DNA of 41,997 bases from IMG/VR virus record IMGVR_UViG_2698536372_000019, positions 1 to 41,997 of that record. One strand, 5' to 3'. Shown piece by piece: positions 1 through 19,778 of the stretch; within the stretch, counting starts at the first letter, position 1; every line of letters starts with the position of its first letter. Below the pieces are notes generated by a model. It did not search any database. It was not told the DNA's origin and saw nothing but the letters and a program-made list of their open reading frames with translations. This stretch comes from a virus. Taxonomy: Duplodnaviria > Heunggongvirae > Uroviricota > Caudoviricetes. Made by a program: the position numbers and the translations under genes.

Positions 1-681
1 CGGTTGCTGTTCTTTTTGCCGGAAGTAGCTGTCTTCCAGTTTTTCAAAGAATGCCCATGCCTGATCGGTTTCGAGCATTTTAGCGTGGCGGGCTGCGCCG
101 CGTTCTGTCCAGAGGGTGAGTGAGCGAACATTGCGAGCAATTTTTACAGAGTAGTTTAAAGCTACTCTGTGCTTCAACTCGCGCAATGATTCTCCTTCAA
201 CTTTGAAAAAGTGCTTCCCTTCAACAAAGCGTACTTTGTTCTCATGATGATTTTGGCGAATACGGATTGTTTCTGTCCCATACCCTCTCGCAAGAGTCTC
301 GGTTGTCACTACACGCACTCCCTGCCATTCCAGAACGGGAATTTCATCAGACTGATTCTGAACAACCACCAGCTCCGATTCCTGAACTGAAGGTGCATGA
401 ATTTTTTCTAATTTAACGTTATTTGCTTTCATTCTGTGTGCCTCCTTGCGTGCTTCGGCTGCGACGGTTGCGTAATTCAGATGACCCTGTTCGAGCAGGT
501 ATTCGCGGATATCAGACAACAGGATACGGTGAACCGCGTTCTTGTCCTTTCTCCGGTAAAGTTGTTTGGTGATCATGAAGTAGTTGGCAATAACGCCAGG
601 TATATCCCTGGTGCTGATACAGATTGTGTGCTGTTCAATTGCCTCGATCATCTCTTCACGGGTGACTAATGACTTTCTCAT
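1..681 (-). CDS. ant: anti-repressor Ant, middle-domain variant M2, 5' part (3' end runs off the window start)
   Basis: ATG at 681-679 preceded by GGAGGG; translation MRKSLVTREEMIEAIEQHT...; shared 85-aa N-terminal domain, then ORF6N/Bro-N-like middle ...GYGTETIRIRQNHHENKVRFVEGKHFF, identical to the copy at 17462-18182. Confidence 0.7.
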   Translation of the reverse strand, partial: MRKSLVTREEMIEAIEQHTICISTRDIPGVIANYFMITKQLYRRKDKNAVHRILLSDIREYLLEQGHLNYATVAAEARKEAHRMKANNVKLEKIHAPSVQESELVVVQNQSDEIPVLEWQGVRVVTTETLARGYGTETIRIRQNHHENKVRFVEGKHFFKVEGESLRELKHRVALNYSVKIARNVRSLTLWTERGAARHAKMLETDQAWAFFEKLEDSYFRQKEQQP

Positions 682-899
682 AGTCCCTCCTGAGCAGAAG
701 CGTTAACAGGGAGGCACCAGTAACTGAGAGAATTGCGTGAATCAGTGGAAAAACGGGCAGAGAAAATACATGGGGCGTCAGGAAGCTGAGAGCGAGCCTC
801 ATCTTCTGTTGGTGCAATAACGAAGTGATAGTGACGTTTTTGGCAGGAGTAAAAGCGCCAGATAAATTCAGGATGAGTTGGGGTAGGGATAGTAGCCAT
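678..899 (-). CDS. icd: Icd-like 73-aa protein; stop overlaps the ant start (ATGA)
   Basis: 73-codon ORF MATIPTPTHPEFIWRFYSCQKRHYHF... with AGGAGG RBS; size and position match P1 icd as I recall it; the 187-aa six-frame ORF is an upstream over-extension. Confidence 0.5.
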   Translation of the reverse strand: MATIPTPTHPEFIWRFYSCQKRHYHFVIAPTEDEARSQLPDAPCIFSARFSTDSRNSLSYWCLPVNASAQEGL

Positions 900-959
900 A
901 TTGGCAGCCTCCTTAGACGTTGGTATGTAACCACCGCAGAAGAGACCAATCTTGCTGGC

Positions 960-1035
960 GGTGGACTGTACGGAGTTGGCCTTACTGGCGTCCAAGGTAA
1001 CCAGCCTACCCGAAGGTAGCCCCATACAGCCCACC
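960..1035 (-). ncRNA. c4: c4-like antisense RNA, allele T1 (76 nt, structured)
   Basis: closing stem GGUGGGCUGUAUGG / CCGUACAGUCCACC, internal CUACC-UUCG-GGUAG hairpin; segment CCUUGGACG complementary (one G-U) to CGUCUAAGG overlapping the icd RBS at 911-919. Confidence 0.45.
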
Positions 1036-1217
1036 ATTGTAGAGGTGTGCGTGTACGCCGATACAAAAAAAGACGCGAGCGGCGTCTGTATCGCCTTAGA
1101 CTTAAGCGGGAGGCCAATCCCGGCACCCGTTTTAATGAGGTGCCTGATAAGCATAAACCGAAAATGCCTCAAGGCGCAAGAGGTCAGGCTCAATGTAACA
1201 TCGGTAGTTAAAAAACA

Positions 1218-1234
1218 CAATTTATTAGAGCAAA
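1218..1234 (-). promoter_or_regulatory. C1 operator-like site (Op51-like), 15/17 to ATTGCTCTAATAAATTT
   Basis: plus strand reads CAATTTATTAGAGCAAA. Confidence 0.6.
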
Positions 1235-1281
1235 TATTCATTCATTAAGCCATGCCAGAGCTTCATCAACCTGCGCTTCGT

Positions 1282-1282
1282 N
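1282..1282. other. assembly junction J1 (single n)
   Basis: n separates a pacB 3'-end fragment from the KilAC region of the next ant copy; reading frame is lost across it. Confidence 0.9.
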
Positions 1283-2247
1283 GCGTTGATGTATTGCTGG
1301 AACGGCACATTTTTACGTCCACCGGACGCTATCAGGATGCCGTTCTCCCGTAACCAGGCAAACAACGCGTTTTGCTTAAGCCCAACAACCTTTGCAAAAT
1401 TTCCAATCAGGATCCCCTTGGCCACTGATACCCGGTCGGCAAAATCGACTTTAGGGGCGGCGGCCACCAGCTGCTGATTTAGCTGGTGGGCTTTCTGTTC
1501 CAGAAGTTGCTTTTGTTCAGCCAGTTCGGCAGCCAGGCGCAGAGCTTCGGGAAGCGTCTGGGGGATTGCGATCGGTTGCTGTTCTTTTTGTCGGAAGTAG
1601 CTGTCTTCCAGTTTTTCAAAGAATGCCCACGCTTCATTTGTGTCCACGATCTTAGACATGCGTGCCGCTCCGCGCTCGGCCCAGAGAATTACCTGACTTG
1701 TATATTTGCTAACCAAGTGACTAATAGTCACTAGCCTTTTAAATTCCTTTAATTTTGAACCAGTTAAGAGATAGTAATGCTTACCTTCTTCAAAGCGATC
1801 GGGGTTGCGAGACAAATTTTTACGAATATTCGCTTCATCGGTCCCATACCCTTTAGCAAGAGTCTCAGTTGTCACTACACGCACTCCCAGCCATTCCAGA
1901 ACGGGAATTTCATCAGACTGATTCTGAACAACCACCAGCTCCGATTCCTGAACTGAAGGTGCATGAATTTTCTCTGATTTAACGTTAGTTGCTTTCATTC
2001 TGTGTGCCTCCTTGCGTGCTTCGGCTGCGACGGTTGCGTAATTCAGATGACCCTGTTCGAGCAGGTATTCGCGGATATCAGACAACAGGATACGGTGAAC
2101 CGCGTTCTTGTCCTTTCTCCGGTAAAGTTGTTTGGTGATCATGAAGTAGTTGGCAATAACGCCAGGTATATCCCTGGTGCTGATACAGATTGTGTGCTGT
2201 TCAATTGCCTCGATCATCTCTTCACGGGTGACTAATGACTTTCTCAT
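1283..2247 (-). CDS. ant: anti-repressor Ant, variant M1a, 3'-truncated at J1
   Basis: ATG 2247-2245 with GGAGGG RBS; N-terminal domain, ORF6N-like middle ...GYGTDEANIRKNLSRNPDRFEEGKHYYLL..., KilAC-like C-terminal region cut at ...NVPFQQYIN. Confidence 0.75.
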
Positions 2248-2465
2248 AGTCCCTCCTGAGCAGAAGCGTTAACAGGGAGGCACCAGTAACTGAGAGAATT
2301 GCGTGAATCAGTGGAAAAACGGGCAGAGAAAATACATGGGGCGTCAGGAAGCTGAGAGCGAGCCTCATCTTCTGTTGGTGCAATAACGAAGTGATAGTGA
2401 CGTTTTTGGCAGGAGTAAAAGCGCCAGATAAATTCAGGATGAGTTGGGGTAGGGATAGTAGCCAT
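2244..2465 (-). CDS. icd: Icd-like 73-aa protein (copy adjacent to pacB)
   Basis: identical to 678-899. Confidence 0.5.
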   Translation of the reverse strand: MATIPTPTHPEFIWRFYSCQKRHYHFVIAPTEDEARSQLPDAPCIFSARFSTDSRNSLSYWCLPVNASAQEGL

Positions 2466-2525
2466 ATTGGCAGCCTCCTTAGACGTTGGTATGTAACCAC
2501 CGCAGAAGAGACCAATCTTGCTGGC

Positions 2526-2601
2526 GGTGGACTGTACGGAGTTGGCCTTACTGGCGTCCAAGGTAACCAGCCTACCCGAAGGTAGCCCCATACAGCCCAC
2601 C
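2526..2601 (-). ncRNA. c4: c4-like antisense RNA, allele T1 (copy adjacent to pacB)
   Basis: identical to 960-1035. Confidence 0.45.
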
Positions 2602-2629
2602 ATTGTAGAGGTGTGCGTGTACGCCGATA

Positions 2630-2652
2630 CAAAAAAAGACGCGAGCGGCGTC
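2630..2652 (-). terminator. hairpin GACGCCGCUCGCGUC followed by U7 on the minus strand, between pacB and c4
   Basis: read on minus strand; a second copy sits at 1064-1086; candidate -10 TACAAT lies just downstream of it on the minus strand. Confidence 0.4.
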
Positions 2653-2783
2653 TGTATCGCCTTAGACTTAAGCGGGAGGCCAATCCCGGCACCCGTTTTA
2701 ATGAGGTGCCTGATAAGCATAAACCGAAAATGCCTCAAGGCGCAAGAGGTCAGGCTCAATGTAACATCGGTAGTTAAAAAACA

Positions 2784-2800
2784 CAATTTATTAGAGCAAA
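2784..2800 (-). promoter_or_regulatory. C1 operator-like site immediately after the pacB stop
   Basis: CAATTTATTAGAGCAAA, 15/17 to consensus. Confidence 0.6.
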
Positions 2801-2803
2801 TAT

Positions 2804-4288
2804 TCATTCATTAAGCCATGCCAGAGCTTCATCAACCTGCGCTTCGTCTTCGACGCTAAGCACTTCATCTTGGGGAACATAGTTCGCCAACATAGCGAAA
2901 CAATATGTATCCCAATGGTCCGGTGAGTGCAGGTTGAGTTTTTTCTTCATATCTTCCTTTGACATCACCTTCCATTGACCTGCGGAATTTATCCCTACCG
3001 GTATCTTTGATGCTTCCTCTATAGTCGCAGCCCCCTTATCAAGCCGCATACGCCCTGATTTTACAGCTTCTGCCGCCTGAATATTCGCGAAAGCGCGCAT
3101 ATCGAAATAAAGGCTTTTATCTTCACGGCTGTGCATCTTTTTACCCCAGCGGATACGCTGGACGGTAATACCATAGCGTTCGTACATCAGATCAGCCGTC
3201 GATTTCCCCAAGCCATCGCCATCAATAGCTATGGTTATGTTCGGGAACCGTTCTGGGTTACATTCTGCGAAAATCTTGGCGGCTAACTGCGTTTCTGTAA
3301 CGTCTGTGTATTCCAGCATACGATAGTTGATTACACGGCGTTTATTTCGCTGGCCGGACACCATCATGATATTAATAACGGACTTATCTCGTCCTGTGCC
3401 ACCAGCAACGTCAACACATGCAACCCAGCCCCATCCTTTGGCAATCTTGACCTTTCGCCGCGTCGCCCGCTCAACCTCATCACGACCAAGAAGAAAGCCA
3501 TCTTGAGATTTGGGAAATTCACCACGTACTTTGATCATGTACATGGGGTTATCACGACCGCCATACTCCGCAAGTTTTGCTCGTATAAATTTTGCATCTA
3601 CAAGCGGAGATTCTTCACTATTCAGTATTATCGCAGTAAACAATCCATCAGGATTTCCCGGGCGAATAGCTAGTCTGTGGTGTGAATCGTAGAAATAGCC
3701 TGAAGGTCGCGTAGGCTGGGAAAGAAGCAGAATACGGTTATCCTTACCGGTCAGCGCACCTGTTATCACACTGAATGCTTTATCACTCACACCCGACGCT
3801 TCGTCGATGATATACAAGAGATGATCGGCGTGTTCACCAGCCAACGCCTCCTCATTTCCGGGGCGACAGGACTTTATCAATATTGTCCAAACACCCTTGC
3901 CAGTCACCTCAAAAAAAGACGTTTCTGTAAGAATGAAATACTTCGACAACCACGGGAATCTGCTAACAGCAGTAGCCCAATTGCTCTTTATGTATTTGAA
4001 AATACCATCAAGGACTTGCTGTCTTTTGTTAGCGACCAGAATAACGCGAGCGCCGGGGAAAAACATGATGAAGAGTATTGCAATGATACTCGTCATATCC
4101 GACTTACCAGTACCATGGCCGGAGGTCACACTTGTCCAACTGCCGTCCTGCTGCGTGGACTCAATGATCTCATCCTGCTGCCAGGTTGGTGTCTTCCCAA
4201 ACAACACATCAGCGGCCGCAATCCAGTCATAACGATATAGCGCCACCAGCTCGCGCCAACGTGGGTCCGTTACGCAACTTCTGGCCAT
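2804..4288 (-). CDS. pacB: terminase large subunit PacB (494 aa)
   Basis: Walker [10 protein letters not shown]; length and position after pacA as in P1. Confidence 0.9.
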
Positions 4289-5481
4289 TAATCATCATCC
4301 CCGTACAGTTTGCGGGTAACTTCTTCGTCTTCCTCCTCGTTTTCGTCCAGATCCTGTTCAAGCCATGCTTCGTTTGATATGCCTTCCGCATCGACATCAC
4401 CATAACCACCTGTATCGACGATATCGGCAATTTCTTCTCTACGATGCTCAATCCACAATGCGGCATCAGCGCGGCGGCTGGCGGCCCGTTCTCGCGCAAC
4501 TTTGTCCAGATCTTCAAGAGAAGGGCCACCGACGGCTGTTTGCCTTTCCTCATCATCGGTATTGGTCTTAGGAGCACGCAGATCGGCTTTGATTTGCTCC
4601 AGCATCAGGGGCGGAACTTTCCCACCATGCGCCTCGATGAATTCAGCTGCTTCCAGCACTGACCAGTTATTTTCACGCTTTCGTTCGTATGCCAGCTTAA
4701 CAATGCCAGCTTGCCCCATAGATAAAGCGTGCTTTTCCGCCTCCCGGCTTTCTTTTCGATAGTTATTCCGGATGCTGTAAATGGTGTTGATCAGACTGCT
4801 TATCTGCGCGGAACAGCTGTTTAGCATGCTCGCGATACGGTATTCAGGCGGAGTACCTTCATCATCGTCTTTTTGCTGATCGCGCATTTCCTGCACCAGG
4901 CGAATACACGTATCCCTGGCGTTCTCCAGCATAAGGAGATGAGAAAGAGACTTTTCAAGAAGAGTGGTTTCCAGAACATCGGCCCCGGACCGACGCAACA
5001 TAGCGCGCGCGGCCTTCCGCGCTTCAACGTTATCTATCAGGTAATCGCCAGCTTCGAATTCAAAGCGTTCACCATCATCATCCAGGGTGTCGCGTTCCAG
5101 GCGATCACGTAAGGTCCGGTGGGCGCGGGTGATCACGTCATGATCATCAGAACGATCATTTATGCGCTTATTTTGGCGCTTCGCATTCTCGACTGCGGCA
5201 CTGACAACGGCATTAACCCTTTGTTTTTCCGTTATTTCAGCCGCAATGTGATCACCTGCATGTTGATCATTAGAGTGATCAATGATCATGCTTTTTAGTG
5301 GCTTCCTGACTGGCTTATTTGGCTTGCGGCTGTCCGCTGTCCTGGTGTCTTCTTTGAAGGCACGGAGATAACGACGTGCAGTATTAGGGTTAAGATTAAA
5401 CTCGGCGGCATACTGTGCGATGGTGTAACCACCATCTCGCGCCAGGCGAGCAAAATTCTTCTTGTGATCGTCCCAGGTCAC
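4288..5481 (-). CDS. pacA: terminase small subunit PacA (397 aa), contains the pac site
   Basis: [39 protein letters not shown]...; acidic C-terminus; hexamer clusters inside the gene. Confidence 0.9.
5102..5288. other. pac: P1-type pac site: two clusters of four TGATCA/TGATCG hexamers, each containing GATC
   Basis: hexamers at 5102, 5130, 5141, 5153 and 5249, 5264, 5276, 5283, separated by about 90 bp. Confidence 0.85.
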
Positions 5482-5516
5482 TTATGCTTCCTTTCGTAAA
5501 AACTCTTTTTGACGCG

Positions 5517-5536
5517 AGGGTAACGAAAGTCACATG
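5517..5536 (-). promoter_or_regulatory. late-promoter-like element upstream of pacA (CATGTGACT, 5 nt, TACCCT)
   Basis: same motif and spacing as the three CAAGTGACT sites on the plus strand. Confidence 0.45.
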
Positions 5537-5566
5537 TCAAAAGGCCCGGAACGGGCAAGCAATCAA

Positions 5567-6019
5567 TCAGATACGTGCGGATGTGGCATTACCGTAATGA
5601 CGGTGCTGACGGGCCACCTTATTGAAAAGTTGACGCGCCATTACCCAAGGCTGGTGCTCCCGGCGTTCCTTTTCGTCCTGCGTCATATAGAGTTCGTTCT
5701 GGAGTTTTTCATCAAACCGGCGCGGAGCGCGGCTACGGCGAAAGAATTCAGGATTCAGAGAGTGGATCTGAAATCTACGTGGGCGTGTACTGTCATCAAT
5801 CAAAACAGACGAATACTTAGACACAGCGATAGCCTTTAAGCGCAGATAAACATCGCGCTTATCGACATCCAGATGCGGGTATTCCTTTTCAAGAATTGCT
5901 GCGAGTTCTTTCGCTGATAGAAGAGATTTAGTGCGGATCATGTAATCCGCAATCTCGTACGATGTTATTCGTGAGTGATTTATTTCCATGAAGTGGCGTC
6001 CCTGCCAGTTAAGTAACAT
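5567..6019 (-). CDS. lpa: late promoter activator Lpa (gp10-like, about 150 aa)
   Basis: position directly upstream of pacA and size as in P1; exact start not verified. Confidence 0.7.
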   Translation of the reverse strand: MLLNWQGRHFMEINHSRITSYEIADYMIRTKSLLSAKELAAILEKEYPHLDVDKRDVYLRLKAIAVSKYSSVLIDDSTRPRRFQIHSLNPEFFRRSRAPRRFDEKLQNELYMTQDEKERREHQPWVMARQLFNKVARQHRHYGNATSARI

Positions 6020-6089
6020 CCTGTCACCTACTGATTAGCCCATGTCAACTAATCAACGTGGAATATAATACCCTCGATTAAAGAAATAG

Positions 6090-6106
6090 CAATACATTAG
6101 AGCAAT
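6090..6106 (-). promoter_or_regulatory. C1 operator-like site upstream of lpa (14/17)
   Basis: CAATACATTAGAGCAAT on plus strand. Confidence 0.45.
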
Positions 6107-6107
6107 T

Positions 6108-7151
6108 TTATCTAACACTCGACGAGTGACTTGTGATAGCGCCGACTCCAAGCGCGTAATCAAAGAACAATCGTTGATGCATCGCCAGCCTACCGTGCGT
6201 CTTCTCCCAATTATCGCGGTCACGCTCAATATCACGCTGGCATGACTGGCACAGAGGAATTGCGTAAATGTCATGCGCGCATAATCGACTATGACGAACG
6301 ATATAAGGCGTAATGTGAGCGCCAGCTCCCGCCGCTCCACACCCACAGCATGGACGGGAAGCAACAAAGTCCATGTACTCAGGTAATTTTAGCGATTGCA
6401 GTTTTGGTATTTTGAAATGCGCCATGCCAGGGTCGGAGTCAACATCCACAGGGCATACTTTTGCACGCATCGGCGCGGCGCGTTCTTCCATCATCTGAAC
6501 ATATGCTGTAGCGCGATCGTCATACGGGCGAATATCCGCCTCTTTCAGAGGTCCGCTATCCTGCGTTGCGGCTTTCATCTTATTTATTGATATACGGCAA
6601 ACTTCTTCCGGCATCAGGTGCATCATGTTGCGCATGAAAGCCCACCAGCACAGTTCCTGAATACTTAAATCATGGCCATCTGAAAGCCCCATTTCCTGAC
6701 GGGCGACATCCAGTATCCAGTTAACGCGATTATTATGCAGCGTTTCTTTCAGCTCATTAAAACCACGCATCCGGTAATGGTTATCGTGATGCCAGCACAA
6801 CAACACCGCGCTATTGTCTCGTTCAGCGTGGACAATATGGTTGTCACACCAGCTACGATCTGCGGCCTGGCATTGCCCCTCTTTCCTGCGCAACCACGCC
6901 ACCAGCGCGTCAATTCCACCAATACGGCGAAACAGTTCATCGCTGTTAAAAAACGGCTGCAACGCCTCATTTGTTGCCATGGTTTGCTCGGTAACAACGA
7001 GGCCGTCTTCCATGTGCTCGATTAACTCACGCGGCACCGGCTCCATAATAAATTTACGGCCAGCCTCCACCAGCTTTCTGACCTCCTGATCCACTTTGAA
7101 CGTGGCGAGGCCAAGCTCTTTCTGTACAAAGGGAGTAATTACGGCTTTCAC
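6108..7151 (-). CDS. hypothetical 347-aa protein with C-terminal Cys/His-rich motif (P1 pdcB position)
   Basis: long ORF; CCGCG...H...C..C..C motif near C-terminus. Confidence 0.55.
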
Positions 7152-7178
7152 ATCACACCTTTAATCACTGATTGGGCT

Positions 7179-7379
7179 TTATCTGCTGCCCGGCATTCTC
7201 TGTTTAAGCACTACCATTTCCTGACGGCATAACACAGCAATAGCGGTCCTGGCACCAATTTGCTTACCAACCAGGTATTGCTTTACCTCGCGGCGACTCA
7301 CGCCATCAAGAAGCATCTTTAACGCTTCACGGGACAATTTGTTGTATTTGCGTGCCATTAATCTACTCCGCAGAACCAT
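7179..7379 (-). CDS. small basic protein, possible HTH (P1 pdcA position)
   Basis: 59-66 aa ORF immediately downstream of doc. Confidence 0.4.
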
Positions 7380-7743
7380 ACAATCTACGTAACGTGTCGG
7401 CGACAGAAGATACAGATATCTCTCCGGTCGCAGCCCCTACGGTAAGGTCTGCCAGTTCAGGTGAATCAAATACCTGCACCCCGTTACGGCGTAGAAATAA
7501 CAGCGCACTGTTTAGCGCGGTACGCTTATTGGCATCATTGAATATATGCCCTCTCGCTGTAGCCACCAGGTAGGTGGCGGAGACTTCGAAAAGGTCGGTG
7601 ATCTCTTCGTAGGCAACTCTGGCCTGAACTCTCCCGATAATGGCCTCTGCCCTACCCGGATCTGACATTCCCGGCAGGCCGCCGTAGCGGTTTATATTCG
7701 CATCATGAAGCGCAATAAGTTCTTCCGGTGATATATGCCTCAT
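7363..7743 (-). CDS. doc: Doc toxin (Fic-fold kinase), 126 aa
   Basis: [17 protein letters not shown]...[10 protein letters not shown]... matches P1 Doc as I recall it, including the Doc-type Fic motif. Confidence 0.95.
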
Positions 7744-7964
7744 TATCGGTTAACCAGTTCCTTGTTGGTGGAGTCCAGGGTGTCAAACAGGGATGCAAAT
7801 TCAGCATCCAGCGCCGCTTTTTTGTAGGCTTCGAAAGTAGCCTTGCTGACAATTACTGCTGGCTCACGGCCTCTGCGGGTGATTTCAACCTCTTCCCCGG
7901 CTTCAACATTGTTGAGCACTTCAGAAAGGTTGCCACGCGCGGTACGGAAGTTAATGGATTGCAT
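7743..7964 (-). CDS. phd: Phd antitoxin, 73 aa; stop overlaps the doc start
   Basis: [73 protein letters not shown]. Confidence 0.95.
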
Positions 7965-8036
7965 AAACACCTCGTGTACTCGTTATGTGTACACAATTAT
8001 AAACTTCACAGGCATAAAGCACCAGCACTTTGCAGC

Positions 8037-8426
8037 TTAAATCACCGGACAATCATCAAATTCCCCACTTCGGGCATCATTGATGACATGAGTGATCACA
8101 CCAAAAACAGCATTACTACCCGTGTAACCATCGTCATCTACTGGTAACGCCTCTTTCTTCCCGGTGCTTAAATCCTCCAGGTGCTGGCGCGGATACTTCC
8201 TGTATCTCTTTATGCGATATTCACCCTCCATAGCGCACACAAGCAGAGAACCATCAACCGGAGTAAGCGAGGAATCAACCACCAGCAAAGCACCCTGCAA
8301 TATTCCCTCACGGTGATGGCTATCAGCTGCCCGCATGAAGTAGGTTGCTGATGGATGTCTAATTATCTGCTGATCAAGAGAAATTCGGCTTTCAACATAA
8401 TCCGCCGCAGGAGAAGGGAAACCCAT
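8037..8426 (-). CDS. humD: HumD, UmuD'-like SOS mutagenesis protein (129 aa)
   Basis: S24 LexA/UmuD-like C-terminal domain; LexA box about 20 bp upstream. Confidence 0.8.
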   Translation of the reverse strand: MGFPSPAADYVESRISLDQQIIRHPSATYFMRAADSHHREGILQGALLVVDSSLTPVDGSLLVCAMEGEYRIKRYRKYPRQHLEDLSTGKKEALPVDDDGYTGSNAVFGVITHVINDARSGEFDDCPVI

Positions 8427-8446
8427 AGCGTTTTACCTCAAAAATA

Positions 8447-8462
8447 CTGTTTATCTGTACAG
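8447..8462. promoter_or_regulatory. LexA box CTGTTTATCTGTACAG (perfect CTGT-N8-ACAG)
   Basis: read directly; sits between divergent humD and the 8601 ORF. Confidence 0.8.
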
Positions 8463-8600
8463 TATACATTAAAGAAGCACCTTTGGTGCAAACGCGTTAT
8501 GTACATCAACCACCGCTGATGATTTTTGTGCGCTTTGCTACTATTCATCACCGCGGGATCAGCGTAACCTCGTTGCCAATCAGTTAATAAGGAATTAGCT

Positions 8601-8936
8601 ATGCCTAATCGCATTCCTCTCGATCCTGTATTGCCCAAAAATTTTGACTGCACTCCTAACGAGAAACGCTCTAAAGCTCAGCTGGACGCCTGGTGGGACC
8701 ATCCCTATGGGGTTACAGAACATGACGGGAAAATTGTTGTTTATTGTCTGAATGGTGGCGCGTGGGACCGTCCATCCGTGCTTGGTTTGGCAAATAACTA
8801 TGATGAAGCCTGTGAACTTGCCGAAAGACAGCAGGCAAGCTGGGTAAAAACACGGTCTGAACCGACATTCATGTTTTCAAAAGAACCGCCATTTATACTG
8901 GCGAGGATGCCGCAGCGACCGGATCATCAACAATAA
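8601..8936 (+). CDS. hypothetical 111-aa protein divergent from humD (possibly LexA-regulated)
   Basis: RBS TAAGGAA before ATG. Confidence 0.55.
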   Translation: MPNRIPLDPVLPKNFDCTPNEKRSKAQLDAWWDHPYGVTEHDGKIVVYCLNGGAWDRPSVLGLANNYDEACELAERQQASWVKTRSEPTFMFSKEPPFILARMPQRPDHQQ

Positions 8937-8966
8937 ATTGTTGCTGAATTTTCCTCAAGGGATGAG

Positions 8967-9182
8967 ATGAATCTCTTCTCATTAAAGCAGGAAGAAAGGG
9001 ATCGCGTCGAAGTGTCTCCAACTCTCGACCACAACCGGATGAACCTGGCCCAACTCGCCTGGTACAGCAAAGAATTAGAGATGTCTATTGCCCGACTTGA
9101 AAACGAAAAAGCCGCTATCCAAGCCCAGCATGAAGTAGTTCTGAACCGGATTAGAGAAATGCAAAACGATAATAGAGGCTAA
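8967..9182 (+). CDS. hypothetical 71-aa coiled-coil protein
   Basis: RBS AAGGGA; no similarity to theta/HolE that I can see. Confidence 0.4.
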   Translation: MNLFSLKQEERDRVEVSPTLDHNRMNLAQLAWYSKELEMSIARLENEKAAIQAQHEVVLNRIREMQNDNRG

Positions 9183-9242
9183 ATCGAGGTAGAAAACACA
9201 TTGTTTAAGGCCACTAATTGTGGCCTCAAAGGGGAGAGATGC

Positions 9243-9767
9243 TTATTGGCTATGGCTAAAAATCAAATGAGACACTTCATGTGGTTGTAGCTCGTCAAGA
9301 TCCGGGGCCACAAAACCTTTTCCGAAAGACTTCACAAGTAATTCACCAGCCGCATCATTGTCACCTATTACACGAAAGTCATACGGCAGCATCGCAAGTT
9401 GACGGCGTAATCCTGCGGAGAAAGTCGAACCTAACAGCGCCCACGAATTGCCGCCCGCGTTGTGTACAGCTGCGCTCTTAAAAATAGACTCAGTTATCCA
9501 TATTGGGCCATCTTTTAAAGGAAGATAGGTTCCCCAAAGTAACTGTCTGCCATGTGATCGCGTGAAATACCGGGCCATCTTCGGATTGCTATGCTGCTTA
9601 GGAGCACCTGGTCTATATGTCTGATACCCAGCCAACATCCCATCAAACCTGTATAGAGGGAATGTAACTACTCCTTCACTTTCATCGATCCACTGTCTAT
9701 ATGGGTGTATATCATGGCGGTAGTTACGAGTTAGCAAATGAGCTTCCAGCTTTCCAAATTTTGTCAT
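9243..9767 (-). CDS. Toprim-like protein (174 aa)
   Basis: ITESIF and VIGDNDAAGE (DxD) motifs; ATG overlaps the stop of the upstream gene (ATGA). Confidence 0.45.
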   Translation of the reverse strand: MTKFGKLEAHLLTRNYRHDIHPYRQWIDESEGVVTFPLYRFDGMLAGYQTYRPGAPKQHSNPKMARYFTRSHGRQLLWGTYLPLKDGPIWITESIFKSAAVHNAGGNSWALLGSTFSAGLRRQLAMLPYDFRVIGDNDAAGELLVKSFGKGFVAPDLDELQPHEVSHLIFSHSQ

Positions 9768-10069
9768 ATTCCGTTCTTCCTGCATACTGGGCATGTGTTC
9801 TCTGTGAAATATGGGAAACTATTATCCAGCTCATCTACCCACTGTTTATGGTCGAAGCAGAAAAATATCTCCCACGGCATTCCATATTCTTCCATCCATA
9901 GGCGGATCTGCATTTCTATTGGAATCGGCGGTATTGCAGACACCATATCAACAGGATAACAGTTCAGACGACGTTCCAGTTCTTCTACTCTCTTCTGGAG
10001 ATGAAATATCCGATCCAGATGCACACGCCGCTCCCGTGCCATTTTAAAATAAAGCTCGCCGGTCATCAT
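9764..10069 (-). CDS. small coiled-coil/zinc-ribbon protein, paralog A (101 aa)
   Basis: C-terminal W..F.C.DH..W.DELD.SFPYF.E..CP.CR shared with 10069-10353; TAATG coupling. Confidence 0.5.
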   Translation of the reverse strand: MMTGELYFKMARERRVHLDRIFHLQKRVEELERRLNCYPVDMVSAIPPIPIEMQIRLWMEEYGMPWEIFFCFDHKQWVDELDNSFPYFTENTCPVCRKNGI

Positions 10070-10353
10070 TAACTCCTACATTCAGGGCAAGAGTTCCCTT
10101 CCGCAAAATAGGGGAAACTGCTATCAAGCTCATCACACCATCTGCGATGGTCGTAGCACCAAAACGCCTCCCACGGTGCACGGAAATACTTCATCCACCA
10201 GGACACTCGATCAGGTATATCTGCTGGTGGCAGCTCTTCTGGCAATAATTTGCCTGATAATTCCCTTTCCGCCCGCGCCAGCATTCCTTTTAGACTCGCA
10301 TTCTCTTTTTCAAGAATATCTATGCGCGCCTGTAACTCAGCTTTCGTTGGCAT
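10069..10353 (-). CDS. small coiled-coil/zinc-ribbon protein, paralog B (94 aa from internal Met)
   Basis: ...WEAFWCYDHRRWCDELDSSFPYFAEGNSCPECRS; the first 27 codons of the six-frame ORF are probably not translated. Confidence 0.5.
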   Translation of the reverse strand: MPTKAELQARIDILEKENASLKGMLARAERELSGKLLPEELPPADIPDRVSWWMKYFRAPWEAFWCYDHRRWCDELDSSFPYFAEGNSCPECRS

Positions 10354-10540
10354 GGTCCGCCTCATGCTTTTCAGCCACCAGCGGCAATAAAGCCCTGGCC
10401 ATCTTATGAACCAACAGAGCATCGATAATGCCAAGCGTATGCCCCGGCTTAATGTTTAATGCCGCCTCAAGGTGACACCTTTCCAGGTCACTTTTCTCGG
10501 CTTGTTTATGATGGTCTGGCGTAATAACGTCGCCCAAAAC
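10337..10540 (-). CDS. 3' end of a gene truncated by the N-run
   Basis: ...PGHTLGIIDALLVHKMARALLPLVAEKHEADHANES; upstream part lost in the gap. Confidence 0.35.
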   Translation of the reverse strand, partial: VLGDVITPDHHKQAEKSDLERCHLEAALNIKPGHTLGIIDALLVHKMARALLPLVAEKHEADHANES

Positions 10541-10557
10541 NNNNNNNNNNNNNNNNN
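10541..10557. other. assembly gap J2 (17 N)
   Basis: N-run placed 3 codons before the expected ant stop. Confidence 0.95.
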
Positions 10558-11582
10558 GCTACTGGTTTTAACAAACCAGCATCAAGTAGCTTGCGAGTTA
10601 ACCACTGCTGGCCTTTACCCGTTAATTGGGGCGTCAGCCGTATCTGGTAACCATCTTCATCATCCAGCACCACTTCTTTCACCGTGAAATACCCGGCGTT
10701 GATGTACTGCTGGAACGGCACATTTTTACGTCCACCGGACGCTATCAGGATGCCGTTCCCCCGTAACCAGGCAAACAACGCGTTTTGCTTAAGCCCAACA
10801 ACCTTTGCAAAATTTCCAATCAGGATCCCCTTGGCCCCTGATACCCGGTCGGCAAAATCGACTTTAGGGGCGGCGGCCACCAGCTGTTGTTCCAACTGCA
10901 TTTTCTGTTCTGCCAACTCGGCAGCCAGGCGCAGTGCTTCGGGGAGTGTTTGGGGGATCGCTGGAGAAGCCGTGCTAGCCTGCTGCAATTCTTCCAGTTT
11001 GTCGATCAGCGAACGGCGGACCGCTTTTGACTCGCGCGCGGCGACTCGCAGGGCTTGTTTGAAAGTCATGGTGATAATGTCTATGTTTGCACCATTTTTG
11101 CGACCTACACTTTTTGTGTAGGTCTCACCTTCAAGCTCATCTACAACCTTCTCAATAAACTTATTATTTCTTACTAATGGTTCCCCACATAACTTACGCG
11201 CCTCATTAACCATCTTTAACAGCGTCTGGCTGTCGATTGTGTCTCCGGTGTTGGGGATAGCATCCATGACCGGTGCTGGTGTGGTTGCTGTCAAAGGCTT
11301 TGTAACGACAACATCTGGTTTGCTTGCTTTCATTCTGTGTGCCTCCTTGCGTGCTTCGGCTGCGACGGTTGCGTAATTCAGATGACCCTGTTCGAGCAGG
11401 TATTCGCGGATATCAGACAACAGGATACGGTGAACCGCGTTCTTGTCCTTTCTCCGGTAAAGTTGTTTGGTGATCATGAAGTAGTTGGCAATAACGCCTG
11501 GTATATCCCTGGTGCTGATACAGGCAGTGTGCTGTTCAATTGCCTCGATCATCTCTTCACGGGTGACTAATGACGTTCTCAT
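10558..11582 (-). CDS. ant: anti-repressor Ant, variant M3 (AntA-like middle domain), nearly complete
   Basis: N-terminal MRTSLVTREEMIEAIEQHTACIST..., distinct middle ...LLKMVNEARKLCGEPLVRNNKFIEKV..., KilAC-like C-terminus ...LTRKLLDAGLLKPV. Confidence 0.75.
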
Positions 11583-11800
11583 AGCCCCTCCTGAACAGAA
11601 GCGTTAACAGGGAGGCACCAGTAACTGAGAGAATTGCGCGAGTCAGTAGAAAAGCGTGCGGAGAAAATGCAGGGAGCATCCGGAAGCTGAGAACGTGCCT
11701 CATCTTCTGTTGGTGCGATAACGAAGTGATAGTGGCGTTTCTGGCAGGAGTAAAAGCGCCAGATAAATTCAGGGCGTGCGCAAGGATTGGCATTAACCAT
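11579..11800 (-). CDS. icd: Icd-like 73-aa protein, allele T2 (MVNANPCARPEF...)
   Basis: 73 codons, overlaps ant start; N-terminus differs from the T1 allele. Confidence 0.45.
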   Translation of the reverse strand: MVNANPCARPEFIWRFYSCQKRHYHFVIAPTEDEARSQLPDAPCIFSARFSTDSRNSLSYWCLPVNASVQEGL

Positions 11801-12050
11801 AGTTACGGCCTCACAATCAGGTTTAACAACCTGCTACCCGCTGTCNNNTCAGTAGAAAAGCGTGCGGAGAAAATGCAGGGAGCATCCGGAAGCTGAGAAC
11901 GTGCCTCATCTTCTGTCGGTGCAATAACGAAGTGATAGTGGCGTTTCTGGCAGGAGTAAAAGCGCCAGATAAATTCAGGGCGTGCGCAAGGATTGGCATT
12001 AACCATAGTTACGGCCTCACAATCAGGTTTAACAACCTGCTACCCGCTGC
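11640..12050. repeat. about 206-bp unit present twice, separated by NNN (11846-11848)
   Basis: direct duplication of the icd-prime region flanking an N-run (J3); likely assembly artefact. Confidence 0.7.
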
Positions 12051-12127
12051 TAAACAGGTGGCAGGACGTGACGGGGTTAGCAGACTGGCGATTGTGAAAC
12101 CAGCAGGCCGAAGCCTCCCCATCACGC
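12051..12127 (-). ncRNA. c4: c4-like antisense RNA, allele T2 (77 nt)
   Basis: same closing stem and UUCG hairpin as T1; internal segments UCACAAUC and CUGCUAA complementary to 12084-12091 and 12071-12077 partners (see finding). Confidence 0.45.
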
Positions 12128-12306
12128 CCCACCATAATTTGGGCGTAACGCGGTTTTACGGACACAAAAATACCGCAATATCGGATATCTGCGGCTGTCC
12201 GCACAATCATTCAGGCTGCTAAACCCGGTCGCAGAATTTGCTACGACGTAGGAACTATAAGCCTGAACAACAGGAAGATCAATAGTCTGGCGTCCAATAG
12301 TAGTTT

Positions 12307-12340
12307 ATTTGCCCCAATAAATCAAATTTATTAGAGCAAT
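12307..12340. promoter_or_regulatory. bipartite C1 operator: degenerate left half plus perfect site AAATTTATTAGAGCAAT (12324-12340)
   Basis: 17/17 match to reverse complement of consensus. Confidence 0.7.
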
Positions 12341-12450
12341 AACAATCTGGTTGAATGTTTCCTCTCTGAGGTTGCAATGTGCACACTTAGTGTATTATTT
12401 GTATGCACTAATAAATATATTATTTTTAATAATAAATAATTGACAACTGA

Positions 12451-12470
12451 CAAGTGACTTCAGTCAAAAT
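12451..12470 (+). promoter_or_regulatory. late-promoter-like element CAAGTGACT, 5 nt, CAAAAT
   Basis: conserved motif and spacing shared with 13781, 36264 and (minus strand) 5528. Confidence 0.5.
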
Positions 12471-12600
12471 CATCACACGCCCGGTACGGATGGATCCCTT
12501 TTCAAATATTCCATGGACGGCACAGTCTGAGTACCGGGCGCTACCTTCAGTTGTATTGCTAAGCCGCCGCTGGTGGCTTTTCTTTTTTGTAGGGGGAGCT

Positions 12601-13242
12601 ATGGATAAGAAAATATGCGTTGTTTCGATGAGCGTCGGCAAACCGGCGTCAATGACTGCTGCATGGATCAACAATGAGCTGATCATGGCTGAGCGGACCA
12701 GCTACCCTGAACGCCGCCGCGATATGGAACTCCAGCTTCTGCGCGAATTGCGAGAAAAAGAGGAAAAGGGTTTTATCGTGCTGGTGGAAGAGGAAAACAG
12801 CTTTATTACCGGTCGAGTTGGCCAGCGTGTAAGGTTGCGCGATCCCTTCATGAACGGCAGGCCGGTACTAATTGAAGCAATGCAGATTTACAAGGAGCTG
12901 GAACGCCAGAAAGCGATCAAGTTACCGCGCAAGGAATCCGGCAAATACATCCTCCACCAAAGCATCTTCGATTCCGAACACGATAAAAAAGGCGATGAAT
13001 TTTTCAACATCAACTGGAGCGAAATAACAACAGAGCATGTTCTGACATTGTTATGCTGTTTCGCAACGGAATACAACAATGTTGCCAGCGCCGACTACAT
13101 CAGGGCAATGGCTGGAGAAGTTGAGGCCCGCCAGGAACCATCGTTACTAAGACCTCTGATTAACATAATTCACGGAACCCAAACACTGGCGCAAAAACAA
13201 GTACCACAAGGGGAATTGACGGGTAAAGGTAATTATCTCTGA
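12601..13242 (+). CDS. hypothetical late protein (213 aa)
   Basis: ATG with AGGGGGAG RBS; the six-frame ORF start at 12454 is rejected. Confidence 0.55.
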   Translation: MDKKICVVSMSVGKPASMTAAWINNELIMAERTSYPERRRDMELQLLRELREKEEKGFIVLVEEENSFITGRVGQRVRLRDPFMNGRPVLIEAMQIYKELERQKAIKLPRKESGKYILHQSIFDSEHDKKGDEFFNINWSEITTEHVLTLLCCFATEYNNVASADYIRAMAGEVEARQEPSLLRPLINIIHGTQTLAQKQVPQGELTGKGNYL

Positions 13243-13281
13243 AAGATGCCCGGCGATAGACCGGGCAAAAGGGCGGAAAGT

Positions 13282-13530
13282 TTAATCTGCATTCAGGAGC
13301 AATGCGTTATCTATGATGATCTGCTCCCATTCTTCGAATGCCCGATCGCGGACCCCCTGGGGAACACTGTTTGTTTTGAAATCAACGACTGTCCGCCATT
13401 TCCCGTCCGGACGGTACATGCGCAGAGCTTTACTGCCCCCTTCCCTTCGCACCTCAACGTTATGCTTGTCAGCAAACTCTTGTAATGCTCGTAGCGTCCC
13501 ATGCTTTACTGTGTAGTATCGCTTTTTCAA
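13282..13530 (-). CDS. small 82-aa protein, weak HicA-like pattern, TTG start
   Basis: GGAGAG RBS before TTG; ...RREGGSKALRMYRPDGKWRTVVDF...; convergent with the 12601 gene. Confidence 0.35.
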   Translation of the reverse strand: MKKRYYTVKHGTLRALQEFADKHNVEVRREGGSKALRMYRPDGKWRTVVDFKTNSVPQGVRDRAFEEWEQIIIDNALLLNAD

Positions 13531-13780
13531 GTTTTCTCTCCAGCCTGTGCCAAGGCTTTGACGTCGAAATTATGTCCTATTCGGTTTTATTGTATCAGAT
13601 AGTGTGGACATATTATTTCACGTCCGGCGTAGTCGGTCATAGCTTTTGCCTTCCACCTTTTCCACGCCGTATCTAATCGGCGCCCGATGAAATGTTATTG
13701 CACTAATATATTTCAATATTTCGCTGACACTTGAACAGCGAAACACCCCCATAGATAGCTTGTTCATTGGTAATCCTTAA

Positions 13781-13800
13781 CAAGTGACTAGTGTTAAATT
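13781..13800 (+). promoter_or_regulatory. late-promoter-like element CAAGTGACT, 5 nt, TAAATT
   Basis: upstream of the portal-like gene. Confidence 0.5.
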
Positions 13801-13833
13801 CCGTTCAAACACGATGCGAATTATTCTAATTAA

Positions 13834-16564
<2,731 letters not shown>

Positions 16565-16569
16565 CCACC

Positions 16570-16632
16570 AAAAATAACCCCGGCGGCTGCCGGGGTATCT
16601 GAAATCACTGGCGGCCGAAAGGCCGCCTTTTT
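16570..16632. terminator. back-to-back rho-independent terminators
   Basis: plus strand GGCGGCCGAAAGGCCGCC + T5 (16610-16632); minus strand CCCCGGCAGCCGCCGGGG + T-rich (16570-16594). Confidence 0.65.
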
Positions 16633-16639
16633 AATTTAA

Positions 16640-17055
16640 TCACTCAGCCGCTACTGGTTTTAACAAACCAGCATCAAGTAGCTTGCGAGTTAACCACTGC
16701 TGGCCTTTACCCGTTAATTGGGGCGTCAGCCGTATCTGGTAACCATCTTCATCATCCAGCACCACTTCTTTCACCGTGAAATACCCGGCGTTGATGTACT
16801 GCTGGAACGGCACATTTTTACGTCCACCGGACGCTATCAGGATGCCGTTCCCCCGTAACCAGGCAAACAACGCGTTTTGCTTAAGCCCAACAACCTTTGC
16901 AAAATTTCCAATCAGGATCCCCTTAGCCACTGATACCCGGTCGGCAAAATCGACCTTAGGGGCGGCGGCCACCAGCTGCTGATTTAGCTGGTGGGCTTTC
17001 TGTTCCAGAAGTTGCTTTTGTTCAGCCAGTTCGGCAGCCAGGCGCAGAGCTTCGG
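16640..17055 (-). CDS. ant: Ant C-terminal (KilAC-like) fragment, 5'-truncated by the N-run
   Basis: ...AAPKVDFADRVSVAKGILIGNFAKVVGLKQNALFAWLR...KPVAAE stop. Confidence 0.6.
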
Positions 17056-17066
17056 NNNNNNNNNNN
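17056..17066. other. assembly gap J4 (11 N)
   Basis: sequence on the two sides is unrelated. Confidence 0.95.
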
Positions 17067-17220
17067 GCTGAACATTTTGTGATGAATGCAACGGAGGAGG
17101 AAGCGCGGCGAGGGCTTACTAGAGTGATGGCGGAATTTGGCGAACTCCTGGGTAAGGTAAACAATGCCCTTTCAATCAGTTCAGCAAGATCCAAAGCGTT
17201 AACAGCTTCCATGATGAAAT
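17067..17220 (+). pseudogene. orphan 3' end of an unidentified gene (...MAEFGELLGKVNNALSISSARSKALTASMMK stop)
   Basis: open frame enters from the N-run and ends at TAA 17218-17220. Confidence 0.3.
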
Positions 17221-17221
17221 A

Positions 17222-17247
17222 AAAAAGCCTGGCAAGGAGCCAGGCTG
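17222..17247 (-). terminator. hairpin AGCCUGG-CUCCUUG-CCAGGCU followed by a U-run on the minus strand
   Basis: read directly. Confidence 0.5.
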
Positions 17248-17352
17248 CACAAAAGAGCGGGTTTGTATTCCGCATCCAATCAATCAAGAAAGAGTATAGC
17301 ACACAGGTACTGAAGTGAAAAAATGTGATTCTCGATTAACAAAATATCTACC

Positions 17353-17376
17353 ATTGCTCTAATTGATTGCTATAAT
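17353..17376 (+). promoter_or_regulatory. C1 operator-like site (14/17) overlapping a TATAAT -10
   Basis: ATTGCTCTAATTGATTG then CTATAAT. Confidence 0.45.
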
Positions 17377-17436
17377 TGAGCCGCAGTTTTTGTCAACTAC
17401 GAAGACGTTGCCATTATAGACTCCGTGACATCATTG

Positions 17437-17460
17437 GCGGCCGAAAGGCCGCCTTTTTTA
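17437..17460 (+). terminator. GGCGGCCGAAAGGCCGCC + T6
   Basis: same hairpin as at 16610. Confidence 0.6.
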
Positions 17461-17461
17461 A

Positions 17462-18182
17462 TCATTCAGCCGCCACCGGTTTTAACAAGCCAGCTTCGAG
17501 CAGTTTACGCGTCAACCACTGCTGGCCTTTACCCGTTAATTGGGGCGTCAGCCGTATCTGGTAACCATCTTCATCATCCAGCACCACTTCTTTCACCGTG
17601 AAATACCCGGCGTTGATGTATTGCTGGAACGGCACATTTTTACGTCCACCGGACGCTATCAGGATGCCGTTCTCCCGTAACCAGGCAAACAACGCGTTTT
17701 GCTTAAGCCCAACAACCTTTGCAAAATTTCCAATCAGGATCCCCTTGGCCACTGATACCCGGTCGGCAAAATCGACTTTAGGGGCGGCGGCCACCAGCTG
17801 CTGATTTAGCTGGTGGGCTTTCTGTTCCAGAAGTTGCTTTTGTTCAGCCAGTTCGGCAGCCAGGCGCAGAGCTTCTGGAAGCGTCTGGGGGATTGCAACC
17901 GGTTGCTGTTCTTTTTGCCGGAAGTAGCTGTCTTCCAGTTTTTCAAAGAATGCCCATGCCTGATCGGTTTCGAGCATTTTAGCGTGGCGGGCTGCGCCGC
18001 GTTCTGTCCAGAGGGTGAGTGAGCGAACATTGCGAGCAATTTTTACAGAGTAGTTTAAAGCTACTCTGTGCTTCAACTCGCGCAATGATTCTCCTTCAAC
18101 TTTGAAAAAGTGCTTCCCTTCAACAAAGCGTACTTTGTTCTCATGATGATTTTGGCGAATACGGATTGTTTCTGTCCCATAC
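17462..18182 (-). CDS. ant: anti-repressor Ant, variant M2, 3' part (5'-truncated at J5)
   Basis: ...TETIRIRQNHHENKVRFVEGKHFFKVEGESLRELKH... through the KilAC-like domain to the stop; overlaps in sequence with the 5' part at 1-290. Confidence 0.7.
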
Positions 18183-18183
18183 N
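18183..18183. other. assembly junction J5 (single n)
   Basis: frame and homology break inside ant. Confidence 0.9.
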
Positions 18184-19227: not shown

Positions 19228-19445
19228 AGCCCCTCCTGAACAGAAGCGTTAACAGGGAGGCACCAGTAACTGAGAGAATTGCGCGAGTCAGTAGAAAAGC
19301 GTGCGGAGAAAATGCAGGGAGCATCCGGAAGCTGAGAACGTGCCTCATCTTCTGTCGGTGCAATAACGAAGTGATAGTGGCGTTTCTGGCAGGAGTAAAA
19401 GCGCCAGATAAATTCTTGGCGTGCGCAAGGATTGGCATTAACCAT
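19224..19445 (-). CDS. icd: Icd-like 73-aa protein, allele T3
   Basis: MVNANPCARQEF...; overlaps ant start. Confidence 0.45.
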   Translation of the reverse strand: MVNANPCARQEFIWRFYSCQKRHYHFVIAPTEDEARSQLPDAPCIFSARFSTDSRNSLSYWCLPVNASVQEGL

Positions 19446-19495
19446 AGTTACGGCCTCATGTACAGGTTTAACAACCTGCTACCCGCTGTCAAACA

Positions 19496-19572
19496 GGTGG
19501 CAGGACGTGACGGGGTTGACAGACTGGCGTACATGAAACCAGCAGGCCGAAGCCTCCCCATCACGCCCCACC
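19496..19572 (-). ncRNA. c4: c4-like antisense RNA, allele T3 (77 nt)
   Basis: differs from T2 only in two short segments that co-vary with the icd leader. Confidence 0.45.
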
Positions 19573-19745
19573 ATAATTCGGGCGTAACGTGGTTTACGGA
19601 CACAAAAATACCGCAATATCGGATATCTGCGGTTGTCCGCATGTACATTCAGGCTGTCAAACCCGGTCGCAGAATTTACTACGACGTAGGAACTATAAGC
19701 CTGAACAACAGGAAGATCAATAGTCTGGCGTTCGATGGTAGTTTA

Positions 19746-19778
19746 TTTGCTCTAATAAATCAAATTTATTAGAGCAAT
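19746..19778. promoter_or_regulatory. palindromic pair of C1 operators (TTTGCTCTAATAAAT / AAATTTATTAGAGCAAT)
   Basis: right half 17/17, left half 14/17; arms inverted around 3 central nt. Confidence 0.75.

Follow-up and report, generated by a model that had tools for sequence, protein, structure and literature searches.

An additional immI-like C4–icd–ant cassette beside pacB in a P1-like phage-plasmid, and the probable scaffold breaks that obscure it

The stretch of DNA analysed here (41,997 nucleotides, referred to as the window throughout) is a segment of a P1-like (Punavirus) phage-plasmid, with pacA and pacB both 98.9% identical to those of P1 and P7, in which the stop codon of pacB is followed after a 3-nt spacer by a predicted C1 operator and by an immI-like block of RNA genes, icd and ant. 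The junction between pacB and the predicted operator is genuine and is shared by a large sublineage of P1-like phage-plasmids that has been described before and includes RCS47, JL22, vB_EcoM-673R5, pO111_2 and many STEC plasmids. It is highly probable that the whole picture combines this genuine junction with an extra cassette inserted in the gap that separates pacB and c1 in P1, a mode of regulation that can be drawn by homology, and an artefactual duplication of the cassette at the left end of the window. The features of the pac genes and of the cassette are the following.

4288–5481, minus strand: pacA, terminase subunit of 397 aa (from the list of open reading frames and P1 annotation)
2804–4288, minus strand: pacB, terminase subunit of 494 aa, with stop codon TGA at 2806–2804
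2784–2800, minus strand: C1-operator-like 17-mer TTTGCTCTAATAAATTG, matching the consensus ATTGCTCTAATAAATTT at 15 of 17 positions
2632–2709, minus strand: IsrK-type leader RNA (Rfam RF01394, 60.8 bits against a gathering threshold of 50)
2683–2677, minus strand: a1 site TTGGCCT, inside the IsrK-type leader, complementary to C4
2667–2660, minus strand: b1 site GTCTAAGG, inside the IsrK-type leader, complementary to C4
2520–2607, minus strand: C4 antisense RNA (Rfam RF01695, 75.9 bits against a gathering threshold of 45)
2563–2556, minus strand: b' CCTTGGAC, in the loop of the second C4 hairpin
2548–2542, minus strand: a' AGGCCAA, in a single-stranded stretch of C4
2477–2515, minus strand: C4 target sites in the icd leader, located by complementarity
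2515–2509, minus strand: a2 TTGGTCT, in the icd leader
2484–2477, minus strand: b2 GTCTAAGG, overlapping the icd Shine-Dalgarno sequence AAGGAGG
2244–2465, minus strand: icd, 73 aa, Icd-like cell-division inhibitor and leader open reading frame (homology to P1 Icd)
1283–2247, minus strand: ant, first approximately 321 codons, with ORF6N and KilAC domains, cut at N1282

The predicted operator begins at the fourth base past the pacB stop and lines up, in the alignment, with Oc4 of P1 and Op(c4) of P7; eight operator-like sites with no more than two mismatches were found in the window against 0.01 expected from shuffled sequences. After pacB, the order on the minus strand is predicted operator, IsrK-type leader, C4, icd and ant, and the interval 2780–2810 contains no N. 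A first-pass annotation of the same DNA had placed the start of an operator, C4, icd and ant block 4 bp past the pacB stop, at a junction free of N and with no intervening c1, and the sequence bears it out on both points, the operator following the pacB stop after the 3-nt spacer.

A terminator scan identified an intrinsic-terminator-like hairpin, AGACGCCGCTCGCGTCT, followed by a T-run (2653–2637, minus strand), which closes the IsrK element, and the C4 match that comes next spans the full RF01695 model (positions 1–87 of 87). The complementarity between C4 and its sites is complete, a1 pairing with a' at 7 of 7 positions, a2 with a' at 7 of 7 with one G-U pair, and b1 and b2 with b' at 8 of 8 each, again with one G-U pair, and sites and loops covary across the six distinct a/b specificities that were compared. 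The icd product, the open reading frame of which is annotated as ‘Icd-like’ in relatives, is 80% identical to P1 Icd over 66 aligned residues, and its stop codon overlaps the start of ant in an ATGA at 2247–2244. The Ant protein contains the PF03374 KilAC and PF10543 ORF6N domains and is 50% identical to P1 Ant1 (BLASTP E = 5e-91), with conservation of the N-terminal 90 aa and of the KilAC C-terminus and replacement of the middle by the ORF6N domain. The natural protein has 372 aa, and ant in the window ends 148 bp before the natural stop. Scanning the minus strand of the cassette with the sigma-70 consensus returned no promoter; by eye, with the P1 promoter regions as a guide, two candidates could be recognized, each matching at 7 of 12 positions, namely TTGTGT-17-TACATT, which overlaps the operator, and TTGCGC-18-TATGCT, which lies 7 bases before the start of isrK.

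A 187-aa open reading frame at 2244–2807, overlapping the pacB stop, was considered as a gene and rejected, as it crosses the operator, isrK and C4. It is in frame with icd merely through the absence of a stop codon, and the PGAP annotation of relatives has a partial ‘ash family’ pseudogene here; this open reading frame and the one at 678–1241 are mechanical read-throughs of RNA genes.

In P1 (NC_005856), pacB (91722–93206) and c1 (93231–94082) are convergent and separated by 24 bp, and immI (Oc4, a1/b1, c4, a2/b2, icd and ant1/2) is found at 48140–49731, beside kilA and repL and approximately 43 kb from pacB; P7 has the same layout, with c1 directly after pacB and immI elsewhere. The map of P1 tentatively given in the first-pass annotation, with c1/coi neighbouring the pac genes and immI at another place, is correct according to these coordinates, and the reference phage does not have immI next to pacB, c1 being the neighbour of the latter.

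Comparison with other phage-plasmids demonstrated that the junction is natural and collinear with closed plasmids. Window positions 1841–9178 align without a break to positions 16539–9202 of NZ_CP027443.1 (99.2% identity) and positions 1838–9135 to NZ_CP013030.1 (98.5%), in both cases through 2784–2806, with an unbroken collinear stretch of 7.3 kb across the junction. At least six complete Escherichia coli genomes, among them pO111_2 (NC_013370), match with 100% identity a 401-bp query that has the junction at its centre, and 250 of 5,426 complete E. coli genomes cover at least 80% of this query. The P1-type junction between pacB and c1 is covered in 308 genomes, and the two layouts are about equally common. 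Furthermore, 270 PLSDB plasmids cover at least 80% of window positions 1–3000, and the same insertion is present in phages RCS47, JL22 and vB_EcoM-673R5 with 88–94% identity. In every annotated relative examined (RCS47, 673R5, NZ_CP027443.1, pE2865-1 and NZ_CP013030.1) the order is pacA–pacB–(icd–ant)–c1–coi, with c1 converging on ant and, in three closed E. coli plasmids and RCS47, a spacing of 32 bp between the two. The order pacB–cassette–c1 is also found in draft-genome contigs (L016 and L017), as in complete plasmids, and the unannotated draft contigs that encode a nearby 101-aa protein have only natural contexts, some P1-type and others RCS47-type.

The insertion between pacB and c1 was described in RCS47 by Venturini et al. 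in 2019 (PMC6906374), who also reported homologues of icd and ant1/2 near res–mod in pSvP1, and the layout with a cassette adjacent to pacB is already known. Nearly half of the sequenced P1-like plasmids carry the variant, and under these conditions a layout unlike that of reference P1 is no evidence of rearrangement. Thus, of the interpretation initially given, the statement that the layout differs from that of P1 stands, but the variant is common and published, and c1 is still adjacent in relatives; the proposal of a rearranged immunity layout gives way to that of an extra, diverged immI-like cassette in a lineage the complete relatives of which keep both canonical immI and c1.

The block next to pacB is an additional diverged immI-like paralogue rather than a relocated immI, because closed relatives that share the junction retain the canonical immI beside kilA/repL. 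Three cassettes are present in NZ_CP027443.1 (between pacB and c1, between cre and mat, and the canonical one), and four icd–ant cassettes in NZ_CP013030.1 (the canonical one beside kilA, and those between lyz and pro, between c1 and pacB, and between the tail genes and dbn–ban). The right end of the window is bplB; in relatives the canonical immI sits approximately 3–4 kb farther on, so that its absence from the window is uninformative. Of these cassettes the one next to pacB has diverged furthest, having an IsrK-type leader where the others have c4-a1b1, the ORF6N insert and a C4 specificity of its own. Its C4 and target sequences are shared neither with the other cassettes of the window or of NZ_CP013030.1 nor with P1 and P7, and the cassette should therefore be controlled independently of them.

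With the canonical immI of P1 and P7 the cassette shares the C1 operator, the C4 RNA (RF01695), the a/b sites flanking C4 and the icd–ant ATGA overlap, as well as the order and the logic of Oc4–P51–a1b1–c4–a2b2–icd–ant1/ant2. However, canonical immI lies between sim and kilA, whereas the cassette of the window follows pacB; the leader of the former is c4-a1b1 (RF03163) and that of the latter isrK (RF01394); and C4 recognition differs, being TTGGCCT/AGGCCAA for a and GTCTAAGG/CCTTGGAC for b in the window. The RCS47-type insertions (RCS47, NC_042128; JL22; vB_EcoM-673R5; pTZ20_1P; and pO111_2, NC_013370) have the same position, orientation and content, but these records have one cassette with c1 after ant, whereas the window has an ant interrupted by an N, with a second copy after it, and lacks c1. 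A further likeness is with the isrK–orf45–anrP locus of Gifsy-1 in Salmonella, in which an IsrK leader with its own Rho-independent terminator precedes a conserved RNA, a short open reading frame and an antirepressor gene; as far as can be judged from the published description (PMC4825925), the ATG of the antirepressor overlaps the preceding stop codon as in the window. That locus belongs to a lambdoid chromosomal prophage and acts on a Gifsy repressor, whereas the cassette of the window, part of a P1-type plasmid prophage, combines a predicted operator for P1 C1 with an Icd homologue.

To the left of the first cassette the window continues for 1.3 kb within a repeated copy of it, and then ends.

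1–1281, minus strand: second cassette copy, beside the first, with the contents listed below
1238–1281, minus strand: 44-bp fragment of the pacB 3' end (from the repeat)
1218–1234, minus strand: operator of the second copy (from the repeat)
1066–1143, minus strand: isrK of the second copy (Rfam)
954–1041, minus strand: C4 of the second copy (Rfam)
678–899, minus strand: icd of the second copy (from the repeat)
681 to the start of the window, minus strand: partial ant of the second copy (from the repeat)
1282, no strand: single N at the join of the copies, read as a scaffold gap

Positions 423–1281 equal 1989–2847 without a mismatch over 859 bp, the 44 bp of the pacB 3' end included; identity is 99.2% when the comparison is extended to 272–1281 and 1838–2847, and falls to approximately 80% in the ant 3' parts (1–271 and 1567–1837), where the copies diverge. 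The second copy is itself 99.8% identical to, and collinear with, the sole natural cassette at this locus in NZ_CP027443.1. A tblastn search of the 42-kb window with P1 C1 and Coi detected neither gene (matches at noise level, E ≥ 0.94).

The N at 1282 is one of five N runs (1282, 10541–10557, 11846–11848, 17056–17066 and 18183), all of which lie inside ant cassettes and which delimit six blocks (1–1281, 1283–10540, 10558–11845, 11849–17055, 17067–18182 and 18184 to the end). Taken singly, every block is collinear with natural plasmids; the order in which the blocks are joined occurs in none of them. Overlaps that have not been merged are visible as a 206-bp repeat flanking the NNN at 11846–11848, and as the identity of positions 1–283 with 17900–18182, a stretch that ends at N18183. 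Together with the location of the N runs in the ant repeats, these overlaps indicate a short-read scaffold broken in the repeated ant genes, and findings that rely on gene order near any of the five N runs are to be distrusted. Approximately 17 kb of the backbone of NZ_CP013030.1 (55101–72380), from the humD-side genes to the dbn-proximal cassette, is absent between blocks. The junctions between pro and ant and between cassette and dbn are natural. A reading of the mat–prt–pro block, found between two cassettes, as a real inversion was considered and rejected, as the joins at the N runs are unsupported and the backbone segment of approximately 17 kb is missing.

The tandem copy (1–1281 against 1567–2847) and the missing c1 are most likely scaffolding artefacts. 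An overlapping contig of the same locus would have been joined to the main contig through one N, and c1 would lie beyond the contig break, to the left of the window, as assumed from relatives; c1 would thus be missing because the sequence breaks inside ant at N1282. The alternative of a true tandem duplication, in which unequal recombination carried along the 44 bp of the pacB 3' end and c1 was displaced or lost, appears improbable. It takes the sequence as given, which does read as two C4–icd–ant units downstream of pacB, and the differences between the ant 3' parts mean that the copies are no trivial exact repeat, a divergence that could also have arisen if a truly duplicated copy later underwent gene conversion from another cassette. 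Recombination between the pacB end and ant does occur in nature, as shown by the best partial matches to the copy–copy junction, pPK8217-139kb and six similar plasmids, which have the different structure pacB–Δant(402 bp)–c1. Yet the join coincides exactly with the single N, the truncated proximal ant would run on into 19 unrelated codons, and unmerged overlaps of this kind recur at the other four N runs. Furthermore, the join itself (CATCAACCTGCGCTTCGT-N-GCGTTGATGTATTGCTGG) has no exact match in viral, genome or metagenome contig collections, and a junction-spanning megablast search of the 5,426 complete E. coli genomes found no place covering at least 80% of it; a natural tandem duplication of the cassette was found neither in these genomes nor in the three contig collections. 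The best listed PLSDB matches to a 3-kb query span approximately 1.7 kb of the record, which corresponds to one cassette, apart from two exceptions among them that span approximately 3 kb and have an inserted IS element.

Two other readings concern the pacB side of the cassette. The one put forward in the first-pass annotation, namely that canonical immI was relocated beside the pac operon with displacement of c1/coi, is very unlikely. The P1 and P7 layouts, with c1 directly after pacB and immI elsewhere, and a 42-kb window lacking detectable c1 or coi, count in its favour, but the 50% identity of Ant to P1 Ant1, the ORF6N insert, the IsrK-type rather than c4-a1b1-type leader and the different a/b specificity all set the cassette apart from canonical immI; complete relatives with the identical junction keep c1 (32 bp past ant) as well as, beside kilA/repL, the canonical immI, a position that the window does not reach. 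That the junction could instead be a chimeric join of a pac contig and an ant-containing contig is suggested by the nature of the window, a scaffold with misjoins at ant repeats. This we regard as scarcely credible given that there is no N at the junction, that several independently closed plasmids match the 401 bp around it at 100% identity, that it occurs in 250 complete genomes, and that the collinear alignment runs through it for 7.3 kb.

The working of this additional cassette can be outlined from homology and base complementarity, by taking as models the P1 immI annotation and the study of Gifsy-1 (PMC4825925), in which the conserved ‘orf45’ RNA located downstream is the pairing partner of the leader small RNA, and an AUGA overlap couples translation of the antirepressor to that of the upstream open reading frame. 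The roles of Ant as a C1 antagonist, of C4 and of the operator in the window are likewise putative assignments by homology. In the prophage state the C1 repressor, bound to the operator at 2800–2784, would keep the cassette promoter or promoters off, or transcription low. Transcripts that are initiated would either end at the terminator of IsrK or continue into C4–icd–ant. From the read-through transcript C4 would be processed, and its a' and b' sequences would pair with a2 and b2, masking the icd ribosome-binding site and preventing icd translation; with the ant ATG overlapping the icd stop, translation of ant would be blocked along with that of icd. The a1 and b1 sites of the IsrK-type leader would compete for C4, and when C4 is outcompeted Ant would be produced and antagonise C1. 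The probable role of the extra antirepressor cassettes is to tune C1 immunity and the cross-talk between co-resident P1-like elements.

A more speculative extension, which we consider rather doubtful, is that the 3–5 C4–icd–ant cassettes carried at fixed sites by the P1-like plasmids of this lineage, with orthogonal specificities, form a multi-channel anti-immunity system. The fixed backbone positions are those between pacB and c1, cre and mat, lyz and pro, and the tail genes and dbn–ban, besides the canonical one between sim and kilA. If the specificities were orthogonal, each Ant would be released only on titration of its own C4, for instance by a superinfecting or co-resident relative sharing that specificity, and the dispersed repeats would also be recombination substrates that reshuffle backbone segments. 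No published description of a multi-cassette, multi-specificity arrangement was found in the literature searched, the scope of which stops short of P1/D6 diversity work in subscription journals, and the multi-channel arrangement may be undescribed.

As for the individual specificities, each of the four cassettes of the closed plasmid NZ_CP013030.1 has its own, mutually compensated C4 loop and target sequences. Three C4 loop/target types are seen in the window, and the specificities are largely distinct across the records compared.

The window encodes four C4 antisense RNAs within its 42 kb, as identified with Rfam, and each of them heads an icd-ant cassette with a C1 operator ahead of it. Two of the four cassettes carry an IsrK-type leader and the remaining two a c4-a1b1 leader.

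954-1041, minus strand, C4 antisense RNA (Rfam)
2520-2607, minus strand, C4 antisense RNA (Rfam)
12054-12139, minus strand, C4 antisense RNA (Rfam)
19493-19578, minus strand, C4 antisense RNA (Rfam)
1066-1143, IsrK-type leader (Rfam)
2632-2709, IsrK-type leader (Rfam)
12208-12260, c4-a1b1 leader (Rfam)
19646-19698, c4-a1b1 leader (Rfam)

The closed relatives contain 3-4 C4-icd-ant cassettes each, at fixed backbone positions. The C4 target sites (a/b) of eight cassettes from the window, P1, P7 and NZ_CP013030.1 were compared (window 2477-2683, 12000-12340 and 19430-19780; comparison records L006, at 3256-3460, L013 and L010/L011), and six distinct specificities were found.

C4 target-site specificities of the cassettes compared.
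P1 cassette: a/b TTGACAG / GTTAGTG
P7 cassette and window cassette C (one shared type): a/b TTAGCAG / GATTGTG
Window cassette D and NZ_CP013030.1 dbn cassette (one shared type): a of P1 type, b GTACATG
NZ_CP013030.1 canonical immI (the cassette between sim and kilA): a of P1 type, b of P7 type
NZ_CP013030.1 cassette between lyz and pro: b ACGAATG
pacB cassette: a/b TTGGCCT / GTCTAAGG

For all a/b types compared, a compensating change is present in the a'/b' loop of C4. The matched sites and compensating loops suggest, at the level of sequence, that each Ant would be under orthogonal control by its own C4/target pair.

Two 187-aa open reading frames overlie these RNA genes, their start ATG overlapping the pacB stop.

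2244-2807, minus strand, 187-aa ORF
678-1241, minus strand, 187-aa ORF

They were set aside as mechanical read-throughs, each crossing the operator, IsrK and C4 in the reading frame of icd; in relatives, part of the same stretch is labelled by PGAP as a partial 'ash family' pseudogene.

The pacB cassette is reduced to a remnant in some plasmids. In plasmid pPK8217-139kb (NZ_CP080123.1, comparison record L009, 3853-5723) a 402-bp piece from the 3' end of ant comes directly after pacB, with c1 next to it, and the same remnant is found in six similar plasmids, a structure which indicates that most of the cassette was removed by deletion.

Every N run of the window lies within an ant cassette, and the blocks between the runs are not collinear with natural plasmids.

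1282, N run
10541-10557, N run
11846-11848, N run
17056-17066, N run
18183, N run

The gaps are flanked by unmerged overlaps, namely a 206-bp repeat around NNN (11643-11845 versus 11849-12051) and the window start (1-283), which is identical over 283 bp to 17900-18182, ending at N18183. The window is a scaffold in which misjoins are likely, and gene order across the five N runs is not to be relied on. Approximately 17 kb of the NZ_CP013030.1 backbone is replaced in the window by a mat-prt-pro block, placed between the humD-side genes and dbn-ban.

12403-16600, plus strand, mat, prt and pro, between the cassettes at 10558-12354 and 16600-19792

The pro/ant and cassette/dbn junctions are natural, being present in 16 and 23 complete genomes, respectively, unlike the joins at the N runs.

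Upstream of humD, the segment 9455-10375, part of a variable small-ORF region, gave no megablast match in either of the two closed reference plasmids searched; the 101-aa protein encoded there (9764-10069) is widespread among P1-like contigs. Further features of the window are tRNA genes, annotated in NZ_CP013030.1 at the matching positions as Ile, Thr, Tyr and Asn, and a repeat array that looks like the iteron (incA-type) array of the plasmid replicon.

22471-24735, minus strand, four tRNA genes, located downstream of ban (identified with Rfam)
33450-33620, array of approximately 31-bp repeats with core TCCCTCCAGCACACAT, between a repA-like ORF (32477-33337) and parA (33895-35091)
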